DNA from: Bacillota bacterium
GTDB lineage: Bacteria; Bacillota_I; Bacilli_A; RFN20; CAG-826
Direction: 5' to 3'
Assembly: GCA_036788815.1 (NCBI GenBank)
Contig: DAIQMS010000002.1
Location: forward strand, 17,485 to 81,484
Length of the DNA stretch: 64,000 bases
Shown: positions 6,262 through 40,269 of the stretch, one piece after another
Layout: the number at the start of each line of letters is the position of its first letter
Numbering within the stretch: position 1 is the stretch's first letter
The notes under the pieces: model-generated
What the model was told of the DNA's origin: nothing
Databases searched by the model: none
What the model saw: the letters and a program-made list of their open reading frames with translations, nothing else
Position numbers and translations under genes: made by a program

Positions 6262-6939
6262 ATGACCAAAGACATCGAAGCTATTTACCAAAAAATCCTG
6301 AACGACATCGTGACGCTCAAGATCCATCCGGGGACCCGCCTTAAAGAGGTTGAGATTTCCGAACGTTTCCATGTTTCGAGGACCCCGATGCGGGATGTCT
6401 TCAAAAAATTGGAAAGTGATAAGCTCTTGGTCATCTATTCCCAATCGGGTAGTTATGTCACCAAGATCGATCTTTCCGGCATCAGCGACATCATGTACCT
6501 CCGCTTCGTGACCGAATGCGAAGTGATGCGCGACGTGATGGACAAAATGACCCCGCATGATATCGAAGTGTTGCGTCACCTGATTTCCTCTTCGAAAGAA
6601 GTGCTGACGGCCGATGGCGGCGAGCGCGATCAGAAAGTCGCGGCTTCGTTCTTCGAGATCGATAACTCTTTCCATCACTACATCTTCGACAAGGATGGCA
6701 AATCCGCCGTCCTTGATCTCCTCAATACGTCGTTCCCGTACTTCAGCCGTTATCGTTTTTTGACCTTCTACCGCGATGAGACCGAGATCTCTGCTCTTCT
6801 CAATGTCCACAATGAAATCGTGGATTGCCTCGAGAAGAAAGACATGCCCCATCTCGAAATGATCATCAAGGAGCATAACTACTCTGGCCTCAACGGCATC
6901 GAGAAAGTCAAAGAGCGTCATCCGGATTACTTCATTTGA
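6262..6939 (+). CDS. GntR-family (FadR/FCD subfamily) transcriptional regulator, probable uronate/KDG regulon repressor
   Basis: N-terminal GntR wHTH ([31 protein letters not shown]) plus a C-terminal FCD-type all-helical domain. Embedded in the operon it is predicted to control. Confidence 0.85.
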
Positions 6940-6952
6940 AAGGAGACTATCT

Positions 6953-7789
6953 ATGATTATGACGACCCGGGACTATTCGTCCCAAGAAGACTATGCCCAT
7001 TACGACACCGCTCGGCTCCGGAAGGAGTATCTGATCGAGGAGCCGTTTGGGAAGGATGAGATCAAACTCGTTTATTCCTATATCGACCGCATCATCGCGG
7101 GCGGGGTGATCCCGCTCAAGAAGAAAGTGGTTTTGGGCGTCGCCCCCGAACTTCGGGCTGAGCACTTCCTTGACCGCCGCGAGATGGGCGTCATCAATAT
7201 CGGCGAGGAAGGCGAAGTCGTCGTCGATGGCAAAGCCTATACCCTCAAGCATTTTGATTGCCTCTATGTCGGACGGGGGACGAAAGAAGTGACATTTGCC
7301 TCAAAAGATCCGCAAAAGCCCGCTAAATTTTACCTGAATTCCGCGCCAGCGCACCGGGCATGCCCGACCAAATTCGTCTCATTGGCCGATGCCGATCATC
7401 GCCATTTGGGCAGCAAGCTTGAATGCAATGAGCGGACCATCAACCGCTATATCATCCCGGGCCGGGTCGAAAGCTGCCAGCTGGAGATGGGCTTGACCCA
7501 TCTTGAGCCGGGAAGCGTTTGGAACACGATGCCGTGCCATACCCATGCGAGACGGATGGAAGTCTATCTCTACTTCGATATGGATTCGGATCAAGCTGTC
7601 TTCCATGTGATGGGGCCGGCCACGGAAACAAGGCACCTTCTCATTCATAACGAGCAGGCGGTCATCTCGCCGAGCTGGAGCATCCATAGCGGTGTCTCCA
7701 CCAAGAACTACACCTTCATTTGGGGCATGTGCGGCGAGAACCAGGATTTCGATGATATGGATAACATCGAAACCAAAGATCTCCGCTGA
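6953..7789 (+). CDS. kduI: 5-dehydro-4-deoxy-D-glucuronate isomerase
   Basis: Near end-to-end similarity to E. coli KduI ([49 protein letters not shown]). 278 aa, as in E. coli KduI. Confidence 0.92.
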
Positions 7790-7849: not shown

Positions 7850-8578
7850 TTAAACGGTTGGAAGAGCAAGAGTTTCTTCGAGGCTTGAGACGGCGAAGGC
7901 CCAATGGACCGTGTAGCCCTTTTGGGTGTAGTCGAAATCGAAACGATCGAGGTAGCCTTCTGCTTTGGAAAGAACCGCGCTGAAGGCGAAATCGGTGACG
8001 TCATTGAGTTTTGAAAGCCCGAAAGCGGCGAGATCGCTTTGAGCGACTTTGGCAGAGAAATGGGCTTCATAGCTTTCAAATACGACTGCCATTGCGCTGA
8101 GTTTAGCGAAGTCATAAGAAAGATGATAGGCCGTCGTTGGCATCGTCACGCCTGCTTCGACGTGGTATTTATTGTCATAGCCTTTCCGATAGACGGCATC
8201 CGCAGTTGAATAGACATCCGTTTCAACCGTAGTGGTATCGGTATTGTCTTCATAGCCTGCCAAGGTGCTCACCCGCGAATAGGTGTGCTCGATTTGGTGG
8301 GTGAGATCAAGGGTTTGGCTTTCGGCGGAAGAGCGATAGACTTCGCTTCCTTTTTTGACAGTTCCGTTCCGGGTGATCTTGAAGCAATCGGTTTTCCTCA
8401 TCAGCGCTTGCTGATAAAACTCGGGGCTAAACGGGGCGATGGAGGAGGAAGCAGCCGAAGTGATCCCTTCGCTTGAAGAGATCGCCGGAGCCGATGAGGC
8501 GCTCGAGGAAGCCGGGGCATTCCTCCCACAGGAGACAAGCGGCAGTAGGGCAAGGATGAAGATGAATTTCTTTTTCAT
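7850..8578 (-). CDS. lipoprotein of unknown function
   Basis: Signal peptide with lipobox LPLVSCG. Ser-rich linker (SSSASSAPAISSSEG). Last gene of the minus-strand lyase operon. Confidence 0.65.
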   Translation of the reverse strand: MKKKFIFILALLPLVSCGRNAPASSSASSAPAISSSEGITSAASSSIAPFSPEFYQQALMRKTDCFKITRNGTVKKGSEVYRSSAESQTLDLTHQIEHTYSRVSTLAGYEDNTDTTTVETDVYSTADAVYRKGYDNKYHVEAGVTMPTTAYHLSYDFAKLSAMAVVFESYEAHFSAKVAQSDLAAFGLSKLNDVTDFAFSAVLSKAEGYLDRFDFDYTQKGYTVHWAFAVSSLEETLALPTV

Positions 8579-8589
8579 GGTGTTGTTCC

Positions 8590-11500
8590 TTAAGCGTCAA
8601 GGCCTCCTCCAATTGCCGAAAGGTCATCAAGGAGTGCAAGATAGGCTTTCTTGCCCTCGGTGAGTTTTTGTAGGGCTTCTGCAGGGATTTTTGCTTTCTC
8701 GGTGTCGGAGAGAACCTGATAGACATCCTCGGCTTTGTAGAGGGGGTAATGGCACTTTTGAATCGAAGCGAGATCGATTTGATCGCTCCAAGCCGTAAAG
8801 GAACTCACTGTGAGTTGGCCTTGAAGATCCGCTAAGCTTCGGAGGCTGAGCGTTGGCTTCTCGGCTGTGGCATCGTAAGCAAAGGTCAAAGAGGTGTCGA
8901 GATCGCGTAGGAAGGTCTGAGTCTCGTAGAACTTCGAAGTATAAACTGCCGGGATCTGAACCGAACGGCCACCAGTGATCGCGTTCTTGATTGGGCTAAT
9001 CGAATCTCCGAGGTCCGAATAATCGTTGTCGAGGTAACTGAGCCCAGAAAGCGAATAAGCAAAGGTCTTGCCCGCTGATCCGGCGGTGGTGGCATCATAG
9101 CCAATCGTCTGACCGAAGTAAGTCGGTTGGGTCATCTCGCGGATCTTAAGGTCGCTATAGACGTTGGTGGCTTTGAGAAAACCGCCGGTCTCGTTACGGC
9201 CTAAGAGGCCTGCAACTTCTTTTTTCGAAGAAAGGACGTCCAAGGAAATCAAGGCGTTGGTGATGTTGAGGTTGGCACCGCTATTTCGCCCGATGAGGCC
9301 AGCGTGAGCTCCACTTTCGGAAATCGTGCCATCGACAATGACGTTGCTCAAGGTAGCCGTCGTTCCCGAAGCTTCGGCACCGGCCAAAAGAAGACCGCAA
9401 TGCTCTGGGCCTGAGACGGCGCTCTTTTCGATGGTCACGTTTTCGAAGAGATTTGTTCCGCCCCGGCAACGCCCAATCACCGTGGCAAAATAGCCATTGC
9501 CGCCTGTGAGGGTACTTTCCTGAGCGATTGAACAATTCGAGAAACGGACATTTTCAATCGTACAACCATAGGAATTGCCGCCTAAAACCGCGACATCATT
9601 GAAACCGGTGATATTGGCGTTTTCGAAGGCGATATTCTTCACGGTTCCGTTGAGATTGAAGAAGATGCCCGTTTTGATTGTGGTGGCGCCATTGGCATTT
9701 GAAATCGAAAGGTTCTTGACCGTGTGGCCTTGGCCATCGAGAACGCCGGTGAAGCTGCGTTGGGTCGTATCGTAATTCCAATAATAAGAAGAGAAATCGA
9801 GGTCGTTCATCAGGCGGAAAGTCGAAGCGAGAGTATCGAGCGAAGAAGACATGTCATAGAACTCTTGGCAGGTCGTGATGTTGACGACGGTGGAAATGCC
9901 TTTGGATGAAACCAGCGAGGAATTGCCGTTCGAATTAGCGATGTAGGCATAAACATCGTATTCGCCTGAATAAGAGATGCTGTCGGTGTCAAGACTGAAA
10001 GAATGGGTGGTGATAGCGCTATTGCCGCTGGTTACGTAGCCGGTTAATGTCGCTCCGCCGGAAAGGATGTCCGCTTCGGTGGGTTCGCTCGAGCCTTTTG
10101 TTAAGACGACATAGTAAAGCGTTCCATCCCCACGGTTCACATTGCCAGTCAAAGTAAGGTACCCATAAGTCGTGGATGTCGTTCCGCTTTTGACGATTCG
10201 GCTCTTGAGATAAGAAGACTTAAACTCGGAAAGGGTGACCGCGGAGTTTGCTTTGGAGAAATAGACGGTTTGGCTGATGGTCTTGCTTTCACCCGTTGAA
10301 ACCAAGGTAAAGACATACTGATAAGTTTGGCTTCCATCTTCCGCCGTGGAAGAGGAAGAAACGATGGTGTAATCGGTGTCTTTGGTTAAAATCGTGGCGG
10401 GAGAGAAACGGTTATGAACCTCGAAGGATGGATTGAGGCCGCTGATCGTTTGTCCCTCTTCGGCGAAAAGGGAAGGTTCGTAGTTCGAGATTGTCCCGAT
10501 TCCTATCGTCCGATTGGGATTCGTTGGGTTGGCTTCCGGAAGGTTGGTCAAAGCGTCGAGTTTGAGGTCAGAAAGATACGTTGTTCCGAATTGGGAGCCC
10601 TTGGCAACGTTGATTCGAATTCCGGTTACATCGCCTTTCGCTCCGCTGGTGACTCCTGAGCCACTCAGATAAGTGGAGGCTCCAGCAGTCATATCAATCC
10701 AGCTCAAAGAGGACCAATCGAAAAGCTTGAAAATCAAACGGCCTGAACTCGGCTTGAAGATAAGGCGGAAGGCCTGCCAAATGCCTTCTTCAGGCGCTTT
10801 TAAGCTGACTGGGACATAGGCTCCTGCTTCGAAATACGAATAGGTTAGCGAAGAAAGGGAGATGCCAGCGACGATGGAGGAAGAGCCGTTCAAGAGCTCG
10901 ATGGCGAGGCCATTGGTTTGCTGAGTGAAAAGGAAAGAGCCCTCGAGAACCGCCTGGTTATTGCTCGAGGCGAGAGCCGAGGATTGAACGTTGGCGCTTC
11001 GAGTATAGGAAAGCGAACTGGCGGTCCGGATGCTTTGGACGGCCAAGGCCTTCTTTGAGATCATGTTATTGATGTTGCCATCGATTTTCTCGACGGGGGT
11101 GGCGTTGCTCATTTCGGCGGAAGAACTTTGCCAGCGGAAATAATTGCTTAGTTCGACTCCGGTTTCGTATTCGCTGAAATCTTCGCTCATGGCCAAAGGT
11201 AAATCCGACTCTTGAGCCGATCCTTTTTTAAGAACAACACCCGCAAAATCCTTGCTCGCGCCGACAGAACCAGAAAGGGTGGCTGTCGCCGTGAGAACGA
11301 AGGATTGATTCGTGTCGCTTCGGGTGACCTTGGCCACATAGCCTGCGGCGCTGTCGGTTGTGACTTTGATGGCGGTGGAATTCGAAGAAGTCCAACTGAT
11401 CTTGGCGCTATATTGTCCCAAATAAGGAAGGCGGAATGAGGAGACGACGTTTTGAAGGTCGACGTTGAGATCGATTAGATTGAGCGCTTCGGCGCATTTG

Positions 11501-11622
11501 CCGTCATTGGCGTCTTCGGCAAGAAGCGCTTGATTTCCAGACGAAACCCCTGCAAAAGTCGCACCGATTCCCCCAATCGCGCATAAAGCCCCTAAAGAGA
11601 GGAAGAGCAATTTCCTTTTCAT
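8590..11622 (-). CDS. large secreted GLUG-motif / parallel beta-helix repeat protein (putative surface polysaccharide-active enzyme or adhesin)
   Basis: Signal peptide MKRKLLFLSLGALCAIGGIGA. Repeated beta-helix-like N-rich rungs (NANITGF, NVRFSNC, NVTIEKS). GLUG-type motifs (AGLIGRNSG, AGLLGRNETGG). Start overlaps the stop of the upstream lyase gene, suggesting translational coupling. Confidence 0.65.
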   Translation of the reverse strand: MKRKLLFLSLGALCAIGGIGATFAGVSSGNQALLAEDANDGKCAEALNLIDLNVDLQNVVSSFRLPYLGQYSAKISWTSSNSTAIKVTTDSAAGYVAKVTRSDTNQSFVLTATATLSGSVGASKDFAGVVLKKGSAQESDLPLAMSEDFSEYETGVELSNYFRWQSSSAEMSNATPVEKIDGNINNMISKKALAVQSIRTASSLSYTRSANVQSSALASSNNQAVLEGSFLFTQQTNGLAIELLNGSSSIVAGISLSSLTYSYFEAGAYVPVSLKAPEEGIWQAFRLIFKPSSGRLIFKLFDWSSLSWIDMTAGASTYLSGSGVTSGAKGDVTGIRINVAKGSQFGTTYLSDLKLDALTNLPEANPTNPNRTIGIGTISNYEPSLFAEEGQTISGLNPSFEVHNRFSPATILTKDTDYTIVSSSSTAEDGSQTYQYVFTLVSTGESKTISQTVYFSKANSAVTLSEFKSSYLKSRIVKSGTTSTTYGYLTLTGNVNRGDGTLYYVVLTKGSSEPTEADILSGGATLTGYVTSGNSAITTHSFSLDTDSISYSGEYDVYAYIANSNGNSSLVSSKGISTVVNITTCQEFYDMSSSLDTLASTFRLMNDLDFSSYYWNYDTTQRSFTGVLDGQGHTVKNLSISNANGATTIKTGIFFNLNGTVKNIAFENANITGFNDVAVLGGNSYGCTIENVRFSNCSIAQESTLTGGNGYFATVIGRCRGGTNLFENVTIEKSAVSGPEHCGLLLAGAEASGTTATLSNVIVDGTISESGAHAGLIGRNSGANLNITNALISLDVLSSKKEVAGLLGRNETGGFLKATNVYSDLKIREMTQPTYFGQTIGYDATTAGSAGKTFAYSLSGLSYLDNDYSDLGDSISPIKNAITGGRSVQIPAVYTSKFYETQTFLRDLDTSLTFAYDATAEKPTLSLRSLADLQGQLTVSSFTAWSDQIDLASIQKCHYPLYKAEDVYQVLSDTEKAKIPAEALQKLTEGKKAYLALLDDLSAIGGGLDA

Positions 11623-11623
11623 G

Positions 11624-13087
11624 TTATTTGTCCTCCCCGTTCAAATGGGCGCCCAAGATGGAGCCATCGGATCCCATTGTGTAGAATGGCGAGGATGTTT
11701 TGACTTTGAGGAAGCCGTGGAGATTAATCGTTCCATCGGCATTCCGGAGGGTGTGGTGGATGTCCACGTGAGTGGAGGCCTCTACGCCACTCGAAGCCAT
11801 TGGTTGTGGGGTGGTTTCGCTTTCAAAAGGATCGCTGATGGTTTGAGAGATCAGCGTGCCTCGGAGGGCATTCTTCGAATAATCGCACTCATCGATCGCC
11901 CCGAACTTAAGCATCGCCAAACCCGAATAGAAGACGGAATACTGAGCGTTTCCTCGATATTGGTCTTTGGAATTTGCCAAAGCGGTTTTTCCAGTGACCG
12001 GGCTCGTCCGATTGCCATCGCAATATGAAAGGACGTTTTTAAAGGTGTTATAAGAGGTAGAGGCATCCCGACAAAGATTGATATTGCCGCATTCCCAATC
12101 CCGAACCGCGTTGTTATAGGATGTGCAATTGGTGAGTGAGATCGTTCCTGGATTGGAATTATCGGTAAAGCCATGAGCCGAGTTATTGAAAGCGATGCAG
12201 TTGATGACTTTATGGGAAACGGGGATGACCTCGCCTCCGAGCTTGAAGCCATTGCCATCGGAATTGGCGGTGCCAATGCCATAGGTGGTCATGCCGTTAT
12301 TGAATGCGACGCAGTTCTGGAGCGTCACCGGTCCGATTGGGCCGCTTTCGGATTTTGCGTAGAGATCCCAGCCATCATCGACATTGTTATAAGAGATGCA
12401 ACCATCGAAAACATTGCCATATCCCGTCGTGAGCTTGCAGGCGAATCCATCCGCATCTTCACCGGTCGGGTCGTGGTTATCATGAGAAGTGCAATGAAGG
12501 ATCAGGTTATTCGTCGGCCATTTATCCAACGTATTATCTGAACTCGAACGCCGACCGAGCTGAAGGCCGGAATCCTGGCAATCATGAATCTCGATGTTCT
12601 CGATGGTGTTGTGGTTGCCACCAATATAGACGCCGTTATCGCCCGCCCCTTTGACTTCAAAATCCTTGGCGTGCCAATACTGGGTGTTGAAACTCAATCC
12701 GCGATTGGCTGAATTGAAGGTCATTCCGGAGAAATCGAAAATGACTTTGGCTTCGGTGCCATCGTCTTTGGTCGCGGGCATGAGCGTCTTCATCTCCGAG
12801 GCACTCGCGGCCGGGAGTAAATCCGTCGTTGAATCAATCTTGATTGGATAGGAATAGGCGTAGGTGCCTTCCATGAGGAAAATCGTTTTGCCCGGATGAA
12901 GCAAAGTGATGGCATAGGCCAAGGTATAGGGGTTCGCTTTCGTCCCCGCCCCATCGGTACCCTTCCCCGTTGGGGAAACATAAAGATCCGATCCTTCATC
13001 GCCCTCGCCTTTGACATTGGCGCCTCCGCAGCTTAAAAGTACGCCAGACATCATCAATACCCATCCGAAATAAAAATGCTTTTTCAT
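11624..13087 (-). CDS. lipoprotein, DUF1565/right-handed beta-helix pectate-lyase-like protein (PL9-like candidate)
   Basis: Lipobox LLSCGG. N-terminal signature LYVSPTGKG.DGAGTKANPYTLAYAITLLHPGKTIFLMEGTY, typical of the DUF1565/PL9 N-terminus. PbH1 rungs (GNHNTIENIEIHDCQDSGL, NCVAFNN, NCIAFNN, NCTSYNN). Start ATG 13087 is preceded by an AAAAGGAAAAG SD. The track start at 13228 is a long upstream extension. Confidence 0.6.
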   Translation of the reverse strand: MKKHFYFGWVLMMSGVLLSCGGANVKGEGDEGSDLYVSPTGKGTDGAGTKANPYTLAYAITLLHPGKTIFLMEGTYAYSYPIKIDSTTDLLPAASASEMKTLMPATKDDGTEAKVIFDFSGMTFNSANRGLSFNTQYWHAKDFEVKGAGDNGVYIGGNHNTIENIEIHDCQDSGLQLGRRSSSDNTLDKWPTNNLILHCTSHDNHDPTGEDADGFACKLTTGYGNVFDGCISYNNVDDGWDLYAKSESGPIGPVTLQNCVAFNNGMTTYGIGTANSDGNGFKLGGEVIPVSHKVINCIAFNNSAHGFTDNSNPGTISLTNCTSYNNAVRDWECGNINLCRDASTSYNTFKNVLSYCDGNRTSPVTGKTALANSKDQYRGNAQYSVFYSGLAMLKFGAIDECDYSKNALRGTLISQTISDPFESETTPQPMASSGVEASTHVDIHHTLRNADGTINLHGFLKVKTSSPFYTMGSDGSILGAHLNGEDK

Positions 13088-13158
13088 CGGTAAAACTTTT
13101 CCTTTTGCGCGTTCAGTATAACACTCGATAAAATGGCTAAAAATCATCCGAAAAACTC

Positions 13159-13175
13159 TTGTGCTGACCGCACAT
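13159..13175. promoter_or_regulatory. candidate GntR/FCD operator TTGTGCTGACCGCACAT in the divergent region between the lyase operon and the Ser-rich lipoprotein gene
   Basis: Inverted-repeat arms TTGTGC/GCACA with a 5-bp spacer. Same geometry as the site at 2059-2075. Confidence 0.45.
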
Positions 13176-13241
13176 ATTTTCCTTGGAAACTTGGTAAGGA
13201 AAAGACCTGAGTTATAGAATGAGCCCAAAGAAGGTTCTTTT

Positions 13242-20170: not shown

Positions 20171-21460
20171 TTGTCTAAAAATCAAAAAAATCGTATGGAT
20201 TTAACGCTTGCCGCCACCATCATCGTCCTCGTCGTCTTGACCTTGGTGATTTTCGCGTTCGTCTTTGTTGTTTTCCGCTCGATTCAAAAGTCGGAGCACA
20301 TCTTGGTCGATCAGGGAAACCGCGATCAGGAAATCATCACGGAGAAAGACAAGCAAAAGAGCAAGGCCTATAAGATCGGCAACCTCTTGACGAACATTCT
20401 TTCGGGCGTGATCGCTGCCTTCGCCATCGCGATGATGGCTTTCGCTCTTTATTTCAAATTCAGCAATAACTTGGCCTTCATCAATGGCCAATCGCAGATG
20501 GTGATTGCCTCCAACTCGATGTCTTATGTCGCCCGTGATGCCCAATATGCGACGAATGGCGGCTATCTTACCGACGCCATGGTGGCTCAGGAATTCAAAC
20601 GCGGCGATATTTTGACCGTCGAAAAGCCCCAGTCTGAGGAAGTTTTCACCACCTTGCAAAAAGACTCTTCGGGCAAATTGATCACCGAGAAAAGCATCTA
20701 TGGCAATGGTTACACCTATGTCCCAGTCCAAAGTGGCGTCCTTTATGAGATCTACGGCTACAACAACGATTACTCGAAGAAGTTGGTGGGCAATTCCTGG
20801 AATTCAGAGACCTCGATCATTATTCACCGGCTGGTTCGGATCTGGGCAGATGGCGACGGGAACATCGTCCTCAATTTCGCGGGGGACGCGGTGGGCGGAC
20901 TCGATGACGTCGATGTCAAACCTTCCGAGTTGGTCGCCCATTATCCGGGAACGTCCAAAATCTCCGGCTTGGGCTATGTCATCCTTTTCTTCCAATCGAT
21001 TTTCGGCGTGTATGCGGTTGCTTCAAGCGTCGTGATGCTCCTTTTCTCGGAACTTTATACCGGCAAGATTCAAAAGGATTACGACGTCCGTTGGGGCCAC
21101 ATCGACCATTCGCGCTTGGTCGTTTATGACCAAATCCAAGCCCAACGCGCCTTGATTCAGGACAAATGGGGCTCGCATCGCGAACTCTTAAAGGAACGGA
21201 AAGAAGCGTTTGAGCAAAAGGCCGCCGAACACCGTGAGGAAGTCAAGCAAGCGGTGGAAGAGCATCGCGAGGAAGTGAAAGCCAAAGTCGAAGAACATCG
21301 CGAGGAAGTGAAGGCTAAAGTGGCGGAGCGCCAGGAAACGGTGGGAGCGAAGCTCAGCCAAAAGAAAGCGGAAGCCGTGGCCAAAGAACCTGCCAAAAAG
21401 AAAGTCTTCGGCAAAAAGGGCATCGTCGTGAAGATCGTGAAATCGGACGACGAGAAATAA
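20171..21460 (+). CDS. SipW/Sec11-type (ER-type) signal peptidase I homolog with extra N-terminal TM region and a C-terminal coiled-coil tandem-repeat tail
   Basis: Catalytic-motif matches to SipW: SNSMS (compare SGSMEP), IIHRLV (compare THRI) and FAGDAVGG (compare KGDNN). A C-terminal TM helix ISGLGYVILFF resembles SipW's PYLGYIIGF. Differences from SipW: two N-terminal TM helices and a roughly 130-aa cytoplasmic tail with three EEHREEVKAKV repeats. The start is a TTG without a convincing SD. An internal ATG about 24 nt downstream would give MDLTLAAT. Confidence 0.5.
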   Translation: MSKNQKNRMDLTLAATIIVLVVLTLVIFAFVFVVFRSIQKSEHILVDQGNRDQEIITEKDKQKSKAYKIGNLLTNILSGVIAAFAIAMMAFALYFKFSNNLAFINGQSQMVIASNSMSYVARDAQYATNGGYLTDAMVAQEFKRGDILTVEKPQSEEVFTTLQKDSSGKLITEKSIYGNGYTYVPVQSGVLYEIYGYNNDYSKKLVGNSWNSETSIIIHRLVRIWADGDGNIVLNFAGDAVGGLDDVDVKPSELVAHYPGTSKISGLGYVILFFQSIFGVYAVASSVVMLLFSELYTGKIQKDYDVRWGHIDHSRLVVYDQIQAQRALIQDKWGSHRELLKERKEAFEQKAAEHREEVKQAVEEHREEVKAKVEEHREEVKAKVAERQETVGAKLSQKKAEAVAKEPAKKKVFGKKGIVVKIVKSDDEK

Positions 21461-21473
21461 GAAGAAGACGATG

Positions 21474-21540
21474 AGGAGCTCCCTTGAGGGCTCCTTTTTC
21501 TTTCGACCCTTAAGGTATTAACGCCGTAGCGGGCGTTTTT
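21474..21540 (+). terminator. tandem rho-independent terminators after the SipW-like gene
   Basis: First: GGAGCTCCC-ttga-GGGCTCC followed by TTTTTCTTT. Second: ACGCC-gtagc-GGGCGT followed by TTTTT. Confidence 0.65.
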
Positions 21541-21912
21541 ATTGGGCGCTAAAAATTTTACAATTGACGCTTGATTGTCAAATTTGATAGTTTAAATTCC
21601 ATTTTTAGGAGCCCCAAGGAGGGGACCTCTTGGTAAATAAATAAAAAAGCAGTGACTTTGAGAAGTGTCGACAAGACCTAATAAAGTGGTGGCTATTTAA
21701 AGATGTTGTTGACTCAGAAAAGTGAGGGTTATCCCCGGTTGTACGATGTCGGAAAGAATTCAGTAAAAACTAGTAATCGTCTGGTTTTCACCTCGTATGA
21801 AAACGCTTCCACGGGCATTTTTCAAAATCCTCGTGTATTGTATTGCTACTCCGATAAGGAGCGCGGTGCAGGAACACCGCGAAGCATTTAATCTGCAGGA
21901 GGATTAAAAAGT

Positions 21913-22515
21913 ATGAAACTCACCAACAAGATCGCTCTCATCTCTGGCCTTGGCTGCTTAGCCTTGGTCGGCACCGGGTTCGCAGCCTGGAGCTACATTG
22001 ACGCATCGAACGTCAGCGGTGGCACAGTCACGGCCGCTGCCGCTGCGACGAAAGTCGTTACGAACAGCGTCACCGGAACCATCTCTTTTAAAGAGGGCAC
22101 GATTTCCGCTTATGTCCTTTTGGATGAAAAAGACGTTAGTTCCGCTGGTGCCATTGAAGGCATCGCTTTCTGGAGCGCGACTGCGACGGGTGACGAAACC
22201 AGCACTAGTGCTACCCTTCCGACGATCACTCCAGTCTTCACGATGAGTGATGGCGCTGCGGTTCCGAGCTATCTCACTTATACGTATACCGTTGCCGTCG
22301 CTGCGACGGACACCAGCAAGGCTTCGCTCAAGGATTACGTTGCGGACTTCAGCACGACCACCGGTGTCGCTTGGACTTCGGGAACGGCGATCACTCTTCC
22401 GACTTTGACTTTCACCCAGAGCGCTGCTCCGCAGAGCAAGGCTGCCTATGATGTCATGGTCGCCGCGCTTGCGAACACCAAGATCACCTTCACCTTCAGC
22501 GCTGCGAACGCCTAA
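21913..22515 (+). CDS. secreted Thr/Ala-rich protein with SipW-cognate-type signal peptide (putative major fibre/matrix subunit)
   Basis: N-terminal ...LALVGTGFAAWSYIDASNV matches the G-x-W/F-A-x-F/Y-x-D pattern that follows the h-region in TasA/CalY-class signal peptides. C-terminal block YDVMVAALANTKITFTFS is shared with the next gene. Confidence 0.55.
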   Translation: MKLTNKIALISGLGCLALVGTGFAAWSYIDASNVSGGTVTAAAAATKVVTNSVTGTISFKEGTISAYVLLDEKDVSSAGAIEGIAFWSATATGDETSTSATLPTITPVFTMSDGAAVPSYLTYTYTVAVAATDTSKASLKDYVADFSTTTGVAWTSGTAITLPTLTFTQSAAPQSKAAYDVMVAALANTKITFTFSAANA

Positions 22516-22525
22516 TTTGGCTTTC

Positions 22526-22571
22526 GGCCCTAAGGTTGTTGTCAAAATTCCATTAGGGCCAGGCCTTTTTT
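22526..22571 (+). terminator. hairpin plus T6 after the first fibre-subunit gene
   Basis: Stem GGCCCTAA...TTAGGGCC with a long loop, then AGGCC TTTTTT. Confidence 0.45.
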
Positions 22572-22805
22572 AAGGTTTGGCCCTTTTGGTTCTCAAATCA
22601 CTTATTTGTCTGACCATTTAGGGAGATCGGTTCCTGGCCGATCTTGCTCGTAGGGAGCTCAGGTGAGGGCTCCCTAAATAGAAAAATGAAGCAAGATCCG
22701 CAAAAAGAACTGATCTCCGATACCCAGCAACTCACTATCTCATAGATCCGAACGAAGGGTCCTTATGAGATTCTTTTTGGTTCAAGGGAAAGGAGCGTAA
22801 CGCTT

Positions 22806-23447
22806 ATGAAAAAACTCAGCAAAACGACGTTGCTCCTTTTGCTCGGCTCTGCCGGTCTCCTCACGGTCGCGGGAGTTTCAGTTGGCTTTGCCGCCTGGAC
22901 GTATACCGACGCCGCTAACGTGGCTCCTTTGACCACCGGCGGAATGGCCAACGCCACTGGCGTGGCCACGACCACGACGACCGTTTCCGGTTCGATCAGC
23001 GTATCTGGTAGTGCCGTTGTCATCATTGATGACACGGGCTATACCACGGCGACGGATGGAACAAAAACGTATACGGCAGTGGCCTTTTGGGCCGATGCCA
23101 AACAAGATTATTCGACCGATTCGAGCAAGATCGTGAAACCGACGATGGCCGCGACGCTGACTTTGACCGATGCCACTGCGACGGTTCCTTCGGGCACCGC
23201 CTTTACTTATGCGATCGCAATCAGCAAGACGGATAGCGCTTTGGGCTATCTCTTGGATTATGTCGAGGATTTCTCAGCGACATCTTTGACTTGGGTCTCA
23301 GGCGTTTCCATCGCCTCGAGCCTTCCGACTTTAACAATCAAAACGACCGCGGTTCCCCAGACGCTTGATCAATACAACACGATGATCGAAGCGCTTGATA
23401 ACACCGTGATTACATTTACCTTCAGCGTGAAAGGACCGACGGCATGA
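22806..23447 (+). CDS. paralogous secreted protein with SipW-cognate-type signal peptide
   Basis: N-terminal ...VAGVSVGFAAWTYTDAANV. Shares FW, DFS.T..W.SG and NT.ITFTFS blocks with 21913-22515. Confidence 0.55.
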   Translation: MKKLSKTTLLLLLGSAGLLTVAGVSVGFAAWTYTDAANVAPLTTGGMANATGVATTTTTVSGSISVSGSAVVIIDDTGYTTATDGTKTYTAVAFWADAKQDYSTDSSKIVKPTMAATLTLTDATATVPSGTAFTYAIAISKTDSALGYLLDYVEDFSATSLTWVSGVSIASSLPTLTIKTTAVPQTLDQYNTMIEALDNTVITFTFSVKGPTA

Positions 23448-24334
23448 AATTCGCTTTCATGAAAAAACTCTTCGCCCACCCGGTTCTTTTGAGCCTGCTT
23501 TCGCTTTCGGTCTGCGCCGCTGGCGCGGGCGTTGGTTATGCGACTTGGGCCTATACTTCCGTCAACGTTGATCCTTCCGCCAATGCTTATAAGAACGGGA
23601 CGGCCACGGCCGGGGCGTTCAATTTTGCCTATGATGTGGCTCCGACCTATCCGGTTGAACCCGAAACGACGAAATCCGGCAATACGGGCGGTTATTACGA
23701 TGCCGATGGCAATGAGATCACCGAAACCTATACGTTTGGCATCAGGACGACGAAAGTCAAGAAAAAGACCTATTACTACATCGAAACGGTTTATCTCCCT
23801 TCTTCCTATACCCAAAGCGATTTGCCCAACTTCATTTTCCCGACCTACGTGACTTATTCGTCTCAGGATGGCGGTTATGTTCCTTCAACGAGCGGCTATG
23901 CCGTTTCCGGAACCTATGATTGGACTTCGAACGCTCACGATAACGCGGATGCGCTCAATATCATCCTTCCGTATTCTTACACCAAGATCGGCACCTATTC
24001 GCTTGCGGGCTTCTATGGCATGACCACGGTGACGATCACCCAAGTGGGCAATACGGCGAAATCCTCCGCCCTCACGATTGGGGCCAATGCGTTCCAGGAC
24101 GATTATGCTTTGACCTACGTTAACCTCTCCTCGAATGTGACGAGCATCGGGAAGAACGCCTTTGTTTGCGGAACGGATTACACCCCGGCGCCGACGGTTT
24201 ATATCACCTTTGACGGGACTTCTGCCGCCTGGGCGAATGTCACGCTTGCCAGCAGTTGGAATGGTGGCCGCTCCATTGTGGTGAGAACCACGGAGAGCGA
24301 TGGCAGCTACGTCTATCACACCTACGGCGCCTGA
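23444..24334 (+). CDS. secreted protein with SipW-cognate-type signal peptide and C-terminal BspA-like leucine-rich-repeat domain (candidate tip or adhesin subunit)
   Basis: N-terminal ...CAAGAGVGYATWAYTSVNV. C-terminal LRR_5-like repeats (TIGANAFQDDYALTYVNLSSNVTSIGKNAFVCG). Start overlaps the preceding stop (ATGA). Confidence 0.55.
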   Translation: MKFAFMKKLFAHPVLLSLLSLSVCAAGAGVGYATWAYTSVNVDPSANAYKNGTATAGAFNFAYDVAPTYPVEPETTKSGNTGGYYDADGNEITETYTFGIRTTKVKKKTYYYIETVYLPSSYTQSDLPNFIFPTYVTYSSQDGGYVPSTSGYAVSGTYDWTSNAHDNADALNIILPYSYTKIGTYSLAGFYGMTTVTITQVGNTAKSSALTIGANAFQDDYALTYVNLSSNVTSIGKNAFVCGTDYTPAPTVYITFDGTSAAWANVTLASSWNGGRSIVVRTTESDGSYVYHTYGA

Positions 24335-24353: not shown

Positions 24354-24379
24354 GGCCGTCCTTCGGGACGGCTTTTCTT
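24354..24379 (+). terminator. rho-independent terminator
   Basis: GGCCGTCC-ttcg-GGACGGC followed by TTTTCTT. Confidence 0.75.
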
Positions 24380-25224: not shown

Positions 25225-26985
25225 TCAGTCAAAGAGCGACGGGAACGTGGTCTTGAAGTAGTTGTAGACGTAGGTGTCGTGATAGAGAAGCGCCATCTCG
25301 TTCACGTAGTACTTGTTCGCTTTGTTCTTCCAAGTATCGGTCGAAGAGAGCGAATAGGCAATCTTGCGGGCGACCTGCTCCGCGAAGAAGTGGTCGTTCT
25401 CATGCGAGAGCATGTTGTCGTAATAGGCCGAGGAACCAGTGCCGGTCGAGGTCGAGGTGATTTTGGCGGGTTTGACGGCTTCTTCAACCTTCACGAGATA
25501 CCAGTTGCTGGATGAATCCATATATAAGTAAGGATAAGCAGCGCTGGCTTCGTAGGTGTCCGGAAGCAAGAAGTAATTGCCTTGGACGTAACGGCCATAG
25601 CTCATGGTCATGTTGTCGACATAAGCCCCGTTCGAGAGGTTGTTATCGACATCGTTGGCGACCTGAACCTTGAAGAGGCGGCCCGAGAGAGCGCTCGCGA
25701 GGCTCGAAAGGCCGGCTTTGTCGTACCAACCATGGGTAGTCTTGTCGGCGGCGATGAGAGTCCGGGTCTTCACGGCTAAGCCCGTGTCGACGGTGTAGGC
25801 TCCGCTATTGGTGAAGTCACTCCGAACGGTCGTATCATCGGTGAAGCGGTTGTCGGTCAATTTCTCATACGAGGTGATGATGGTGCCCATCGCAGACTCT
25901 TTGTAGTAGTCGCTGATGGTCCAATCGCCGATCGTGAGAGACTTGAGGGCCGTGGCTTTGTGCCAGCCCGCATCGGTGTAGATCTTCTCCGCAATCGTGT
26001 TTTGAGCGCTCGTGAAGTTCGAGGTCGTGCCTTTGTAGAGATCGCCGAGGAAGGTGAAGCCATAGCTCGTGAAGTCTTTGGCATAAGTGGCATCGCTCAG
26101 GACATCCTTGCAATAGGCGGTCATGAGGTTGCCGACACTGCCGGAATAGGAGGCATTCTCCGCGAGGGAGATGTAATCGACTTTGCGGTAGGCGGTCTGT
26201 TTGATCTGGCCGAAGTTCTCGGTGTAGAGATACTGGGTGGTCAGCTCATTCCGATAGATGTCGGGAAGGACCGCTTGGGCGATGTAGTTCTTGTAGGTGC
26301 CGAAGATGTCTTTGAAATAGGCATCCGTGACATCGGTGGCCGAAGTGCCATTGGCGCCATCGAGCTTGAGCAAGCCGGTCTCGGTGTAGCCTTCGCTTAA
26401 ACGGAAGTTGCCATAGACTTGCTTGTAGGCTTGGTTATAAGGATAAACGGTGCCATTCACCTTGGTGAGGTCGTAGTACGCCGCGGTTTGAGCGTCATAG
26501 AACTTGCTCTCGGCGAATTGGTTGCGGACCTGATAGGACGAATTGGTCACATAACCTAAGAAGGTCGTGCGGATCCGATAGAGGACGTCGAGATAGAAGT
26601 TGACGACCTTGTAGATCGAGTGGCTCGTGCCATCGACATAGGCTGCATACTTATCGGCGAAGGCTTGGAGATCCGCGGTAGCGGTGTTGTCCGCTTCGTA
26701 TTTCTCGACGGCCGCCTTCATCGTGAAGAAGTCGCCATAGATCGATTGCGCGTAGAGATAAAGGACGTTCGAGAGAACCTTGGCGCTATTGGTATCGCCT
26801 TCGGTGATCAAGGCATCATAGATTTTGCCGAGCTCATTGTTGGTGGTGTCAGTGACGTTAAGGATCGGCGCGTTGTAATCGGAAGTCGGAAGTTTGGCTT
26901 CGATGTTATCGCACGAGGCGAGTAAAGCCATCGAGGCTAAAGCCAGCGAGAGAACGCTGACTTTCTTAAATTTACTTAGTGCCAT
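25225..26985 (-). CDS. large lipoprotein of unknown function
   Basis: Lipobox LLASCD after MALSKFKKVSV. AAGGAGGA SD precedes ATG 26985. Tyr/Thr/Asn-rich, no known catalytic motif. The track start at 27060 is an upstream extension. Confidence 0.65.
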   Translation of the reverse strand: MALSKFKKVSVLSLALASMALLASCDNIEAKLPTSDYNAPILNVTDTTNNELGKIYDALITEGDTNSAKVLSNVLYLYAQSIYGDFFTMKAAVEKYEADNTATADLQAFADKYAAYVDGTSHSIYKVVNFYLDVLYRIRTTFLGYVTNSSYQVRNQFAESKFYDAQTAAYYDLTKVNGTVYPYNQAYKQVYGNFRLSEGYTETGLLKLDGANGTSATDVTDAYFKDIFGTYKNYIAQAVLPDIYRNELTTQYLYTENFGQIKQTAYRKVDYISLAENASYSGSVGNLMTAYCKDVLSDATYAKDFTSYGFTFLGDLYKGTTSNFTSAQNTIAEKIYTDAGWHKATALKSLTIGDWTISDYYKESAMGTIITSYEKLTDNRFTDDTTVRSDFTNSGAYTVDTGLAVKTRTLIAADKTTHGWYDKAGLSSLASALSGRLFKVQVANDVDNNLSNGAYVDNMTMSYGRYVQGNYFLLPDTYEASAAYPYLYMDSSSNWYLVKVEEAVKPAKITSTSTGTGSSAYYDNMLSHENDHFFAEQVARKIAYSLSSTDTWKNKANKYYVNEMALLYHDTYVYNYFKTTFPSLFD

Positions 26986-29173
26986 AATAGCAAGCTCCTC
27001 CTTTAGCCCAAAGATCCTTCGTCTTGGTGGTTGAAGCGTATTCCGTGGCGGTGGTCTCACAGAGCAAAGTGCCTAAGGCTGTGTCGGATCCGACGGCTCT
27101 CGCCGCCTCTTGGGCCGCCAAAGTTTCGGCGTAGCTCTTCCAGTTGTCGCTCCAAGTGGTGAAGGCGCTATCGATCGCGGATTGCCGCTTGATGGTCGAA
27201 TAGGTCTTCATCTTGTCGCCTAAAGTCGAATCGTTGAAGGTGATCGAACCATCTTCGACCAACTTCTGGAACTGATAGGTCGAGAGGGCGGAATTGTAGC
27301 CTTTGATCGCCGTCGAGATGTTGCCCGAACGGGTCGTGAGGTCTTCCGAGGTCGGCTTGTTGTAGTCGACGTAGGTCTGGACCGAATCCTTATTGACCGG
27401 ATAGTTGGTGCTATCAGGAAGATAAGTGGTGTAGTACTGGCTCGAAGTGGCGACGTTGTTCGTCTTTGCCTCTTCAGCGGTGGTGTTTTCAACGACTTTG
27501 CCGCTCACATCGGCGTGGAGGCCGAATTCCGAGAGACCGCTCCGCTCAACCACGATGAAGTGGATGCCTTGGTAGCCCGAGCTCGAAACCCGGACGGCTA
27601 AGACGATTTGCTTCTCGCTATTGGTGAGAACGTTTTCGGCTTTGCCATTGTCATCGGTGACGCTGACGACGTTGGTGGTGTCGACTTGGAAGCCAGGTAA
27701 CGAACCATAAAGGGAAGAATAAGCACCTTTATAATATTGTTTTTTAATAACGCCGACGACTGTGCCGTCGCTATTGGTTTGCGTTCCGTGTTGGTCTTTG
27801 ACGGAATCAAGATCGGCACCGACGTTCGAAACCGTCGAGTTCGACATGATGGCGTTCGGAGTGATGACGCAGATGTTGTGCTTATTGAAATACTTGTTGA
27901 AGATGACGTTGCGCGGATAGAAGGCTTCATTGCCTTCGTTGACCGTGTTGCCGTTGACATCTTTGATCGTATCGGCATTGTCGGCCAAAGCGACTGCCGC
28001 GCCGAAGGGGATCTGGCCTAAGCCAGTGGTCTTGATCTCATCATAAACCGTCGAGCCATTCTCAAGCTTCTGGTTGTCATCGACCATGCCGCTCGTGATC
28101 GCGGTGGTGCCGACGTAGGAAGCCGCATCCTTCTTTAAGCCCGGGGCGATCCGATAGGCATTCTTGATGCCGAAGTCGGTTGAAGTCTCACGCTGATTGA
28201 AGAGGGTCTCGTACGCGTAGGAACCTAATTTGAATTCCGGAACGAAGTCCGAGCTCATGACTTTGGTGACGATCGAGGTTTCGCCTTGGTGCGTCGAAGA
28301 AGCCGGGGTGCCCGAATTATCTTCGGAGTATTGCGAAGCGAGATAGCCAAAGGACTGCCGGATCGGTGCTTCGCTGATCGTGGTGGTCCGAGCTTTGGTG
28401 GTGGTATCGACGCTCGAGGCGTAGTTGGCGCCCGCAAGAGCGAAGATCAAACGGGAAAGTTTGGTCGTTTCGCCGCCTTTGCCATCGGTGCTCTCGCCGA
28501 TCTTGTCTTGGGTGAACTCACCGGTTTTGCCCGAGGCGAGTTTAATCAAGATGTGGCGGTAGTGATACGGCATCTGGTCAAGAAGCCAGCCCGCATTGCC
28601 CACGCCCCAATCATTCGAGGACTGCATAATGCTGACGGTCTTGCCGGTGCTATCGGTATAAGAGCCATCTTTCATGGCTTCCAAACCATTGACGGTTGAA
28701 TCACCAGTCGCCCAAGTTTGATAAATGGCGTTCTGGAAATCCGATTTTTCCTCTTCATAGAGGTGGTATTGGTAAAGCTCCGAGACGTTCTTGACGCTGT
28801 GGCTCGTCAAGATCTTCTCGAATTCCGCTTCATAGCTCGAGGTGCTCGAAGCGCTGTTCTTTGCGGTTTGCTTGTCTTTGATGACGTCGCGTTCCGCTAA
28901 GGCTTTGAGATCGGCGAGTTTCGAGGGAAGGCTGTCATAATAATGGCGAACCAAAACCTCATAGACCTTGTCGAATTCGGTTGAAAGCGAACTCGGGGTC
29001 TCCTGATAAGTCTTCAACAAATCGTCGGCTGAGTAGCTGACACGATTGCCGAGCGCATCGGTATACGTGAAAATGCTGCCATTGTTATTGGCCGTCACAA
29101 GATCACAGGCACTGAGTGCTGTGACGCTTGCGAGCATCGCTACGAGTCCGAGGGCACATTTCTTGATCTTCAT
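26972..29173 (-). CDS. large lipoprotein of unknown function (tandem with 25225-26985; the two overlap by 14 nt)
   Basis: Lipobox ALSACD after MKIKKCALGLVAM. AAGGAGGA SD precedes ATG 29173. About 730 aa. Confidence 0.65.
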   Translation of the reverse strand: MKIKKCALGLVAMLASVTALSACDLVTANNNGSIFTYTDALGNRVSYSADDLLKTYQETPSSLSTEFDKVYEVLVRHYYDSLPSKLADLKALAERDVIKDKQTAKNSASSTSSYEAEFEKILTSHSVKNVSELYQYHLYEEEKSDFQNAIYQTWATGDSTVNGLEAMKDGSYTDSTGKTVSIMQSSNDWGVGNAGWLLDQMPYHYRHILIKLASGKTGEFTQDKIGESTDGKGGETTKLSRLIFALAGANYASSVDTTTKARTTTISEAPIRQSFGYLASQYSEDNSGTPASSTHQGETSIVTKVMSSDFVPEFKLGSYAYETLFNQRETSTDFGIKNAYRIAPGLKKDAASYVGTTAITSGMVDDNQKLENGSTVYDEIKTTGLGQIPFGAAVALADNADTIKDVNGNTVNEGNEAFYPRNVIFNKYFNKHNICVITPNAIMSNSTVSNVGADLDSVKDQHGTQTNSDGTVVGVIKKQYYKGAYSSLYGSLPGFQVDTTNVVSVTDDNGKAENVLTNSEKQIVLAVRVSSSGYQGIHFIVVERSGLSEFGLHADVSGKVVENTTAEEAKTNNVATSSQYYTTYLPDSTNYPVNKDSVQTYVDYNKPTSEDLTTRSGNISTAIKGYNSALSTYQFQKLVEDGSITFNDSTLGDKMKTYSTIKRQSAIDSAFTTWSDNWKSYAETLAAQEAARAVGSDTALGTLLCETTATEYASTTKTKDLWAKGGACYYGTK

Positions 29174-29373
29174 ATGCGTGGACTTTGTTCCTCCTTGCAC
29201 AAACATTGCGGGTTAATTCTATTCTCTAAAGAGAATCGGTGCAACAATTAGTTTACGCGCCCTGGCGCGCGTGCGAGCGAACTTTTTAAAAATGAGAAAA
29301 ATTCACTTCATTACCGTATCGTTTGATAGGTCTATCCCGCTGGACTAGAATAAGCGTGCTCTTAGGAGGATTT

Positions 29374-39265: not shown

Positions 39266-39391
39266 TTTACTTTTTCCTTACAAGAAGCAATCCCCGCGGT
39301 TTTTGCAGGGATTTTCTTTGCGATAAGGCCTTTTCATATCCCCGGATAAGTCACGGGAGTTGCAGTAGGGGAGAAAACCACTATAATAGAC

Positions 39392-39512
39392 TCAGCTTCA
39401 GGGCGACGATAATTACGTCGACTGGCGGTAAAGCCCGCGAGCTTATCAATGGATAAGCATGATTCGGTGAAATTCCGATGCCAACGGTAAAGTCCGGATG
39501 TGAGAAGTGGCA
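39392..39512 (+). promoter_or_regulatory. FMN riboswitch (RFN element) controlling ribU
   Basis: Conserved RFN blocks: CTTCAGGGCG, ACTGGCGGTAAAGCCCGCGAGC, GATTCGGTGAAATTCCGATGCCAACGGTAAAGTCCGGATG and GAGAAG closing P1. Confidence 0.85.
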
Positions 39513-39523
39513 CAGATAACGTG

Positions 39524-39554
39524 TGTCCCCCGAAGTAGAAACGGGGGATTTTTC
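39524..39554 (+). terminator. riboswitch expression-platform hairpin (terminator/sequestrator)
   Basis: TCCCCCG-aagtagaaa-CGGGGGA followed by TTTTT. The 3' arm contains the only SD-like GGGGGA ahead of ribU ATG 39562. Confidence 0.7.
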
Positions 39555-39561
39555 ATACCTT

Positions 39562-40269
39562 ATGGACGTCACGAACTGGTTGGTGCTTGCCGCTGCGCTT
39601 ATTTGGGTGGTCGTCGCGACCCTCTTCTATGGGAAGAATCGGCCCGACCATCATTTTGATTGGGTCCGCTTCATTTCGCGGGTGGCGATTTTCGGCGCGA
39701 TTTCGACGATTCTCTATATCGTTCCGGTCTTCCAGATTCAGGTGCCTTTCGCACCCGAATTCCTCAAACTCCATTTCGATGAGATCCCGGCTTTCATTGC
39801 CGGATATGCCTACGGGCCCTGGACGGCCGTGGCGGTCCTTTTCATCAAATCCGTCATCAAACTTCCGATGACGTCGACCCTTGGCGTCGGCGAGCTCTGC
39901 GATTTCCTTTATTCGAGCGCCTTCATCATTCCGGCGGCCTTGATCTATAAAAAGCATCGCCATCTCAAAGGGGTGGCATGGGGCTTTGTGGTTGGGACGA
40001 TCCTCCAGCTCATCGTGTCGTCCGTGATGAATGCCTGGGTGATGCTGCCTTTCTATGTCATGGTTTATTCGGGGCTGACGATGGATATCCTTTTAAAGAT
40101 GTGCCAAGCGGTCAATCCGTCGATCAAGAATCTCACGTGGGACTATATCCTTTATATCAATTTGCCCTTCAACGTCCTCAAAGACGGGATCGTCCTCGTC
40201 GTGACCTTCGTGGTCTATCGGAGCATCCACAAAATCCTTCATTTCGATCGGGCGCCCGAAAAAGCTTGA
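39562..40269 (+). CDS. ribU: ECF transporter S component, riboflavin-specific (RibU-like)
   Basis: Six-TM S-component-like protein directly downstream of the FMN riboswitch. The track start GTG 39523 lies inside the terminator hairpin and is rejected. Confidence 0.75.
   Translation: MDVTNWLVLAAALIWVVVATLFYGKNRPDHHFDWVRFISRVAIFGAISTILYIVPVFQIQVPFAPEFLKLHFDEIPAFIAGYAYGPWTAVAVLFIKSVIKLPMTSTLGVGELCDFLYSSAFIIPAALIYKKHRHLKGVAWGFVVGTILQLIVSSVMNAWVMLPFYVMVYSGLTMDILLKMCQAVNPSIKNLTWDYILYINLPFNVLKDGIVLVVTFVVYRSIHKILHFDRAPEKA

Follow-up and report, generated by a model that had tools for sequence, protein, structure and literature searches.

Does a signal peptidase gene that stands beside genes for a few small secreted proteins belong to a dedicated export system, and does that system build something on the cell surface? 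The question arises at positions 20,171 to 24,334 of a 64,000-nucleotide stretch of a Bacillota bacterium genome (assembly GCA_036788815.1, contig DAIQMS010000002.1, positions 17,485 to 81,484 of the forward strand), below called the window. The locus encodes a dedicated SipW-type peptidase–substrate module, consisting of a peptidase, P1, and three secreted proteins with a common export signal, P2, P3 and P4; by analogy with described systems, the four proteins probably serve, in uncultured Bacilli, to build a surface fibre or to display adhesins. The genes, all open reading frames (ORFs), are as follows.

20195..21460, plus strand: P1, SipW/Sec11-type signal peptidase with three transmembrane (TM) helices, 421 amino acids (aa); the ORF reaches upstream to TTG 20171 (429 aa)
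21913..22515, plus strand: P2, small secreted subunit, predicted β-sandwich, 200 aa, monocistronic
22806..23447, plus strand: P3, small subunit paralogous to P2, 213 aa
23444..24334, plus strand: P4, shared signal plus a leucine-rich repeat (LRR) domain of the LRR_5 family, 296 aa

The four ORFs lie where the first-pass annotation, made from the sequence alone, had placed them, with an amended start for P1: all homologues begin at ATG 20195 (Met9, 'MDL/MEL...'), not at TTG 20171, and the product is likely, on this comparison, the 421-residue protein starting with Met9. Residue numbers of P1 follow the 429-residue, TTG-start reading throughout.

The signal peptidase

P1 is assigned to the endoplasmic reticulum (ER)-type, that is, Ser-His, signal peptidases as a very divergent, apparently catalytically intact Sec11/SipW-like enzyme, because a fold search, transitive profile homology and a profile alignment with human SEC11A agree; the same class had been proposed in the first-pass annotation. 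A word-indexed homologue search of P1 returned nine relatives and badly under-reported the family, whereas an exhaustive HMMER search with a profile covering TM2, the catalytic domain and TM3 yielded 687 cluster representatives at E≤1e-3, 244 of them at E≤1e-10. We sampled 66 members, including P1 and its close relatives. The NF046067 model (signal peptidase I SipW) matches 58 of them, with the best E-value of 3e-22, and TIGR02228 matches 56, the best being 4e-24. The comparison by hhalign of the 66-sequence family profile with human SEC11A (sequence verified against 7p2p_A) gives a probability of 97% and E 1e-10.

The catalytic motifs are well preserved. The series of Ser, His-Arg and Gly-Asp motifs noticed at first reading is present in P1 as S114-x-S116-M117, G145-D146, H219-R220 and G238-D239, and is invariant across eight homologues. 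In the larger sample, S116, M117, H219, R220, G238 and D239 are invariant (66/66), and D245 is nearly so (58/66). In the SEC11A alignment S116-M117 corresponds to S56-M57, H219-R220 to H96-R97, G238-D239 to G115-D116 and D245 to D122, and the distance from D239 to D245, six positions, is the same as that between D116 and D122 of SEC11A. The latter residue is part of the catalytic triad in the structure of the human signal peptidase complex (SPC). P1 combines the S24/S26 peptidase fold, a nucleophilic Ser in an S-M motif directly after a membrane anchor, His of the H-R motif as the general base instead of the Lys of P-type enzymes, and a G-D box with a downstream Asp. The Ser-His dyad is the defining mark of ER-type signal peptidases (PMC10269814).

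The hydropathy plot of P1 features three hydrophobic segments, at residues ~10–35, ~69–96 and ~266–295. The N-terminus starting from Met9, 'MDL', contains neither Lys nor Arg, while the loop between the first two segments has eight Lys/Arg residues and the C-terminal tail has 32. Given the positive-inside rule, this charge distribution places the N-terminus outside, the loop inside, the catalytic domain outside and the tail inside. Thus P1 has three TM helices and its active site faces the cell exterior. The topology problem raised earlier, with the catalytic domain facing inward unless the first helix is cleaved, arises only when P1 is read from TTG 20171. The resulting architecture, with the evidence for each segment, is listed below.

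20198..20275, plus strand (residues ~10–35): TM1, extra N-terminal helix with the N-terminus outside; hydropathy, charge, helix in the AlphaFold2 (AF2) model
20276..20374, plus strand (residues 36–68): cytoplasmic loop with G49-x-x-D52-x-E-I; eight Lys/Arg
20375..20458, plus strand (residues ~69–96): TM2, equivalent to the N-terminal Sec11/SipW anchor; hydropathy, AF2 helix 65–97
20459..20965, plus strand (residues 97–265): extracytoplasmic catalytic domain; invariant residues, SEC11A alignment
20516–20518, 20825–20827, 20885–20887 and 20903–20905, plus strand: checked codons of the catalytic residues Ser116, His219, Asp239 and Asp245, respectively
20966..21055, plus strand (residues ~266–295): TM3, C-terminal anchor as in SipW; hydropathy, conserved GY.ILFF.S.FG.Y
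21056..21457, plus strand (residues 296–429): cytoplasmic charged helical tail; 32 Lys/Arg and 27 Asp/Glu, long AF2 helix

TM2 and TM3 are equivalent to the anchors of SipW, whereas TM1 has been added to them, which is a trait of the family: the catalytic Ser is preceded by at least 95 residues in all 66 members (median 107). The motif G-x-x-D-x-E-I of the loop (20315–20335, residues 49–55) is also nearly invariant, G49 being retained in 60 and D52 in 64 of the 66. The C-terminal TM helix and the long charged tail described at first reading are both present, the tail being 134 aa long. It contains 11-residue amphipathic apolipoprotein-like repeats, with exact copies of EEHREEVKAKV at residues 363 and 374, and yields a weak Apolipoprotein match. 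Its end, KKVFGKKG.VVKIVKSDD, is common to close homologues and absent from shorter family members, and across the wider family the tail varies. In P0117, P0121 and P0124 it is replaced by two to three repeats of an unannotated domain of ~110 residues (…SWKRESFRKG…TLNVYLAL.P…SDR…), and in locus L014 this domain is encoded by a separate gene (199 aa, 6935–7534) directly after the peptidase.

The export signal and the pairing of the genes

The secreted proteins, as claimed originally, all start with a signal peptide and a G-(F/Y)-A-x-W-x-Y block, which reads GFAAWSYID in P2, GFAAWTYTD in P3 and GYATWAYTS in P4. A six-frame regular-expression (regex) search of the entire window found the block at these three N-termini and, in addition, in an unrelated frame of the minus strand at 29708; with one stray match, chance recurrence of the motif was rejected. 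The predicted signals are:

21913–21984, plus strand: P2 signal, residues 1–24, cut GFA|AW
22806–22892, plus strand: P3 signal, residues 1–29, cut GFA|AW
23444–23542, plus strand: P4 signal, residues 1–33, cut GYA|TW

The predicted cut after G-F-A fits the −3/−1 rule and leaves an aromatic residue at each of the cleavage subsites P2 and P2′ (here and below, subsite P2 refers to the scissile bond, not to the protein). The signal of the small subunits, MKLTNKIALISGLGCLALVGTGFA|AW.Y, is the best-conserved part of the family: pairwise identity is 71% in residues 1–28, 20% in residues 29–54 and 31% in residues 55–200. G22, A24 and A25 are invariant, position 23 is Phe or Tyr, and position 26 is Trp or Tyr. 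The consensus of the cleavage region is G-(F/Y)-A|(A/T/S)-(W/Y)-x-(F/Y); in the small subunits a conserved MKLTNKIALISGLGCLALVG stands before it. Synonymous codon changes in the signal region outnumber non-synonymous ones (e.g. 15 vs 5), hence the constraint acts on the peptide, and conservation at the DNA level was ruled out. The whole signal is under strong purifying selection.

The site resembles that of TasA, which is cut at GGTWA|AF; there, aromatic residues at subsites P2 and P2′ hinder LepB, and SipW serves as the dedicated enzyme (PMC10269814). In TasA as in the proteins considered here (GTGFA|AW), positions −3 and −1 hold small residues, while the same two subsites are aromatic. The range of drift of the signal is seen in locus L029, where the motif of four subunits has become GFAGWVIA, GFAAFVVS or GMAAFITS. 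Another protein in the window, a secreted non-lipoprotein of 1010 aa with an aBig_2 domain (8590–11622, minus strand), has a signal ending in …GGIGATFA|GVSS, with Phe at subsite P2, and could be another client of P1.

Small motif-bearing proteins adjoin a three-TM SipW-like peptidase in all 19 informative loci, that is, the loci with a usable flank including this window, over a range of 27–55% GC. Some of these loci were reached from the peptidase (L001, L003, L014, L029, L030) and others from the substrate (L005, L008/L013, L010, L011, L017, L019, L020, L021, L024–L028), and the adjacency holds in either search direction. Thus the genomic pairing of the peptidase and the motif-bearing proteins is obligate, and the earlier suggestion that the downstream proteins are cognate partners of the peptidase stands. 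L001, with an orthologous peptidase 59% identical to P1, has the same four-gene block. In L003 the peptidase is 38% identical and one subunit gene is located upstream, and the distant members of the peptidase family come from loci with 34% (L014), 52% (L029) and 27% GC (L030). In L001, L005, L008/L013, L011 and L028 the small-protein and peptidase genes are followed by ones for LRR_5 or LRR-like proteins that bear the same motif. The LRR_5 domain is carried by P4 orthologues or LRR partners in L001, L005, L011 and L012, the last of which has three such proteins and lies outside the 19 loci, being cut upstream of the subunit gene.

Among closer relatives, the block is situated between yhaM, an HD-domain gene, and hit in most loci examined. 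This conserved housekeeping synteny marks the block as core rather than mobile, and the mobile-island explanation was rejected. The arrangement in distant loci differs: in L014 (2529–9102, 34% GC) two peptidase paralogues share one cluster with three small subunits and a LytTR-type two-component system, and in L029 (1787–6092 of a Bacillota contig, 52% GC) the peptidase comes after four subunit genes in tandem. The relatives are labelled 'Bacilli bacterium', 'Bacillota bacterium' or reindeer rumen metagenome-assembled genome (MAG) only. A scan of the genome-contig collection with the P1 alignment found nothing, and a scan with the A2 alignment led to one genome of GTDB, the MAG of an uncultured member of the Bacilli from reindeer rumen.

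The secreted proteins and their possible assembly

P2 and P3 are paralogues with 42% identity and share the C-terminal ITFTFS, as had been noticed. The P2 family has 37 relatives in a set of 5.8 billion proteins, all without domain annotation. In the AF2 model of P2 (predicted local distance difference test score, pLDDT, 72) a disordered region up to residue 51/54 is followed by a seven-strand β-sandwich with one helix (residues 55–200), and the segment of residues 25–54, between the cleavage site and the sandwich, is thus disordered in the monomer. Foldseek comparison of this model with PDB retrieved nothing, and no relative was found for the small-subunit family profile among PDB sequences. 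The model therefore supports a generic β-sandwich, not similar to TasA or camelysin; the original statement that none of the three proteins is TasA/camelysin-like holds for P2, to which the support given applies. The predicted fold is in itself neutral on the question of fibres.

The BspA-type LRR domain noticed in P4 is found at residues 166–241 (23939–24166), where LRR_5 of Pfam scores 32.1 bits (cut-off 27.7, E 1.2e-7); Pfam and NCBIfam searches of P2, P3 and P4 yielded nothing else of relevance. P4, like the LRR proteins found at other loci, resembles the small subunits in the signal and motif region only, with a second short element, G-x-W-x-(F/Y), about 20 residues after the motif, also common to the small subunits.

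Three other kinds of surface protein were considered and rejected. The C-termini, ...ITFTFSAANA, ...FSVKGPTA and ...YHTYGA, contain no LPXTG and the block has no sortase gene, so these are not sortase pilins. Against type IV pilins, the conserved motif comes only after the hydrophobic segment, Glu5 is absent, and no prepilin peptidase or ATPase genes are located nearby. Finally, Cys15 of P2 is outside any lipobox and absent from P3, which argues against lipoproteins.

We consider it quite probable that P1 is catalytically competent and dedicated to the products of the adjoining genes, together with the following scheme of cleavage, recognition and assembly. P1 would sit in the membrane with three residues of its N-terminus outside, followed by the TM1–TM2 hairpin, the external catalytic domain, TM3 and the charged helical tail inside. 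P2, P3 and P4 would be exported via Sec and cut by P1 after G-(F/Y)-A, yielding mature N-termini A/T-W-x-Y. Recognition may involve the entire signal: Lys2 and Lys6 would be read by the acidic motif of the cytoplasmic loop, the Gly-rich h-region by the extra TM1/TM2 hairpin, and the c-region with its aromatic subsites P2 and P2′ by the active site. The freed N-terminal segment would then allow Ig-like P2 and P3 to build a surface fibre or matrix. P2, with a probable promoter of its own, a strong ribosome-binding site (RBS) and its own terminator, would be the abundant subunit, whereas P4 would be a minor or tip component that joins by the shared N-terminal segment and adds an LRR adhesin domain.

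The assembly step is proposed because of analogies with the TasA donor strand, with TapA and with the sipW-bsaABCRSD cluster of Clostridium perfringens. TasA polymerises via its N-terminal strand, residues 28–38, located right after the SipW site, and TapA resembles TasA in the N-terminal segment only (PMC9674648). The sipW-bsaA genes of C. perfringens follow the same operon logic, and polymerisation there needs SipW (PMC7395162).

The general layout, a gene for an ER-type Ser-His peptidase beside a few dedicated substrates, is that of tapA-sipW-tasA in B. subtilis and sipW-tasA-calY in B. cereus (PMC10269814, PMC9674648). As in tapA-sipW-tasA, the putative major subunit and the accessory protein have only the N-terminal segment in common, and there is no sortase. 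The C. perfringens cluster is close in gene order: sipW comes first, followed by the major polymer subunit, a terminator and accessory secreted proteins, SipW being needed for secretion as well as for polymerisation (PMC7395162). It also contains a two-component system, as does L014, while the block in the window has none. Unlike BsaA, which is TasA-like and is reported to form intermolecular isopeptide bonds (PMC11580942), the mature small subunits have no conserved Lys.

P1 differs from Bacillus SipW by its extra N-terminal TM helix, 134-residue cytoplasmic tail and conserved loop motif, and by two insertions within the catalytic domain. Unlike the TasA/camelysin jellyrolls, the substrates are predicted generic β-sandwiches of ~150 residues and an LRR_5 protein. 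Eukaryotic and archaeal Sec11 (S26B, human SEC11A/C) is anchored by one N-terminal TM helix and depends on accessory subunits as partners; P1, by contrast, brings three TM helices itself, the block contains no accessory genes, and the enzyme would be dedicated rather than general. No similarity of the P2 fold to archaeal TasA-like bundling pili (AbpA) or other donor-strand filaments was detected.

Several results weigh against the proposed scheme. P1 itself has no S24/S26, TIGR02228 or SipW match at E≤1 among the Pfam and NCBIfam hidden Markov models (HMMs), so the direct check suggested earlier, with Peptidase_S26/Sec11 and TIGR02228, gave a negative answer. The cut-offs of curated family HMMs are not reached by P1 and its homology is transitive; its low score against these models is probably due to the two catalytic-domain insertions. 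The P1-family profile has no relative among PDB sequences, solely apolipoprotein-like noise from the tail, and the profile of the close family (A1, eight sequences) aligns with SEC11A at a probability of 9%, too weak to be used alone. Both AF2 models have moderate pLDDT values, 68 and 72. No cell-anchoring element, be it LPXTG, a lipobox or a C-terminal TM helix, was found in P2, P3 or P4. Lastly, TIGR04088 (cut-off 19 bits) has no match at E≤10 to the N-termini of P2, P3, P4 and the L003 subunit, while TasA, the positive control, scores 41.6 bits. The block had been read as the hallmark of SipW-cognate substrates, and here that interpretation fails; with the control passing, the signals form a class distinct from TIGR04088, a TasA look-alike with aromatic subsites P2 and P2′.

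An alternative, which we regard as improbable, is that P1 is the general, perhaps the sole, type I signal peptidase of a lipoprotein-rich Bacilli lineage with a reduced genome, and its neighbours are merely the most abundant clients. The housekeeping slot between yhaM and hit in most loci examined would agree with this, as would the predominance of lipoproteins among what the window exports, and the related ...ATFA|G site of the 1010-residue non-lipoprotein. A regex for LepB-type motifs also found none, its scope being the 64-kb window and not the rest of the genome. However, the adjacency persists outside the yhaM–hit slot or at a very different GC content (L014, L029, L030), and the L014 cluster holds two peptidase paralogues. 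A general peptidase would also leave unexplained a signal with 71% identity on proteins that are 20–31% identical elsewhere, and SipW enzymes described so far act as dedicated rather than general peptidases (PMC7395162).

Doubtful to a still greater degree is the possibility that the N-terminal segment is an uncleaved signal anchor with its aromatic residues at the membrane interface, P2, P3 and P4 being tethered coat proteins or adhesins that P1 sheds, unless it cuts something else. The invariant small residues of G-x-A|A at −3/−1 fit cleavage of type I, the sequence around them is a close match to the proven SipW site of TasA (PMC10269814), and the catalytic residues of the adjoining peptidase are invariant. 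It is highly improbable that P1 is a non-catalytic, peptidase-like assembly chaperone, as SipA/LepA of Streptococcus pyogenes pili, since SipA/LepA lacks catalytic residues and serves sortase-built pili, whereas P1 keeps Ser116, His219 and Asp239 (66/66) and Asp245 (58/66), all aligned with the catalytic residues of SEC11A, in a block without a sortase gene or an LPXTG substrate.

A dedicated, catalytically competent P1 remains our preferred interpretation. Much more tentatively, it may represent a widespread, undescribed, sortase-independent system of fibre or adhesin display in uncultured Bacilli of the rumen and other metagenomes, with recognition of the whole signal, polymerisation by the A-W-x-Y strand and LRR decoration. 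In such a system the TM hairpin would do in cis the job of the accessory subunits of the eukaryotic SPC, the A-W-x-Y strand would polymerise Ig-like subunits, and the BspA-type LRR adhesins, carrying the donor segment only, would cap or decorate the polymer.

The principle of a SipW-type peptidase with dedicated matrix or fibre substrates is already known. What is new, and so far uncurated, is the architecture of the peptidase, the class of signal and the families of substrates. The peptidases form a large clade of 687 clusters (50% identity); all occurrences to date are in metagenome-assembled Bacilli/Bacillota, and its most divergent members are annotated as hypothetical because the standard Pfam and NCBIfam models miss them. 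A new family of small secreted proteins, predicted β-sandwiches, always travels with the peptidase, often together with BspA-type LRR adhesins. If these proteins assemble as TasA and BsaA do, they would represent a third structural route to surface fibres that depend on SipW, and likely a device for attachment to hosts or particles in poorly known bacteria of the rumen, gut and digesters. The co-conservation of the signal with the extra TM hairpin makes the system a tractable model for membrane recognition of signals by ER-type peptidases.

Transcription signals and other features of the window

The non-coding features of the block are the following.

21473..21496, plus strand: terminator-like hairpin 3′ of P1
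21497..21912, plus strand: leader/promoter region of P2, with islands kept in the orthologous spacer of L001 and a strong RBS, GCAGGAGGA
22555..22584, plus strand: strong terminator-like hairpin 3′ of P2, 13-bp stem
24354..24373, plus strand: terminator-like hairpin ending the block after P4

The hairpins after P1, P2 and P4, together with the ATGA overlap of the P3 stop and the P4 start (23444–23447), define the transcription layout P1 | P2 | P3-P4. This agrees with the gene organisation given in the first-pass annotation, including the 290-bp spacer between P2 and P3, which contains the 13-bp-stem terminator, and the coupling of P3 and P4. The 452-bp spacer 5′ of P2, compared with positions 9252–9703 of L001, the orthologous locus with the 59%-identical peptidase, contains conserved islands ATAAAAAAGCAnTGACTTT, AGAAAAGTGA, TGAAAACGCTT and GTATTGTAT, as well as the RBS. 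This conservation suggests an own promoter of P2 and a regulated leader. No Rfam family matches the spacer.

The exported proteins of the window include unusually many lipoproteins with classic lipoboxes (…GSC, …VSC, …LSCG, …AGCG, …ASC, …SAC). Their ORFs start at 2946, 13242 and 43699 on the plus strand, and on the minus strand are located at 7850–8578, 11624–13228, 25225–27060 and 26972–29206. Several of them are large and Ser-rich, without a Pfam domain. A flavin mononucleotide (FMN) riboswitch (39390–39513, 81 bits) precedes a gene for the S-component of an energy-coupling factor (ECF) transporter (39523–40269). Finally, the window contains a bacterial RNase P RNA of class B (48420–48738, 226 bits), which places the organism in Bacillota.

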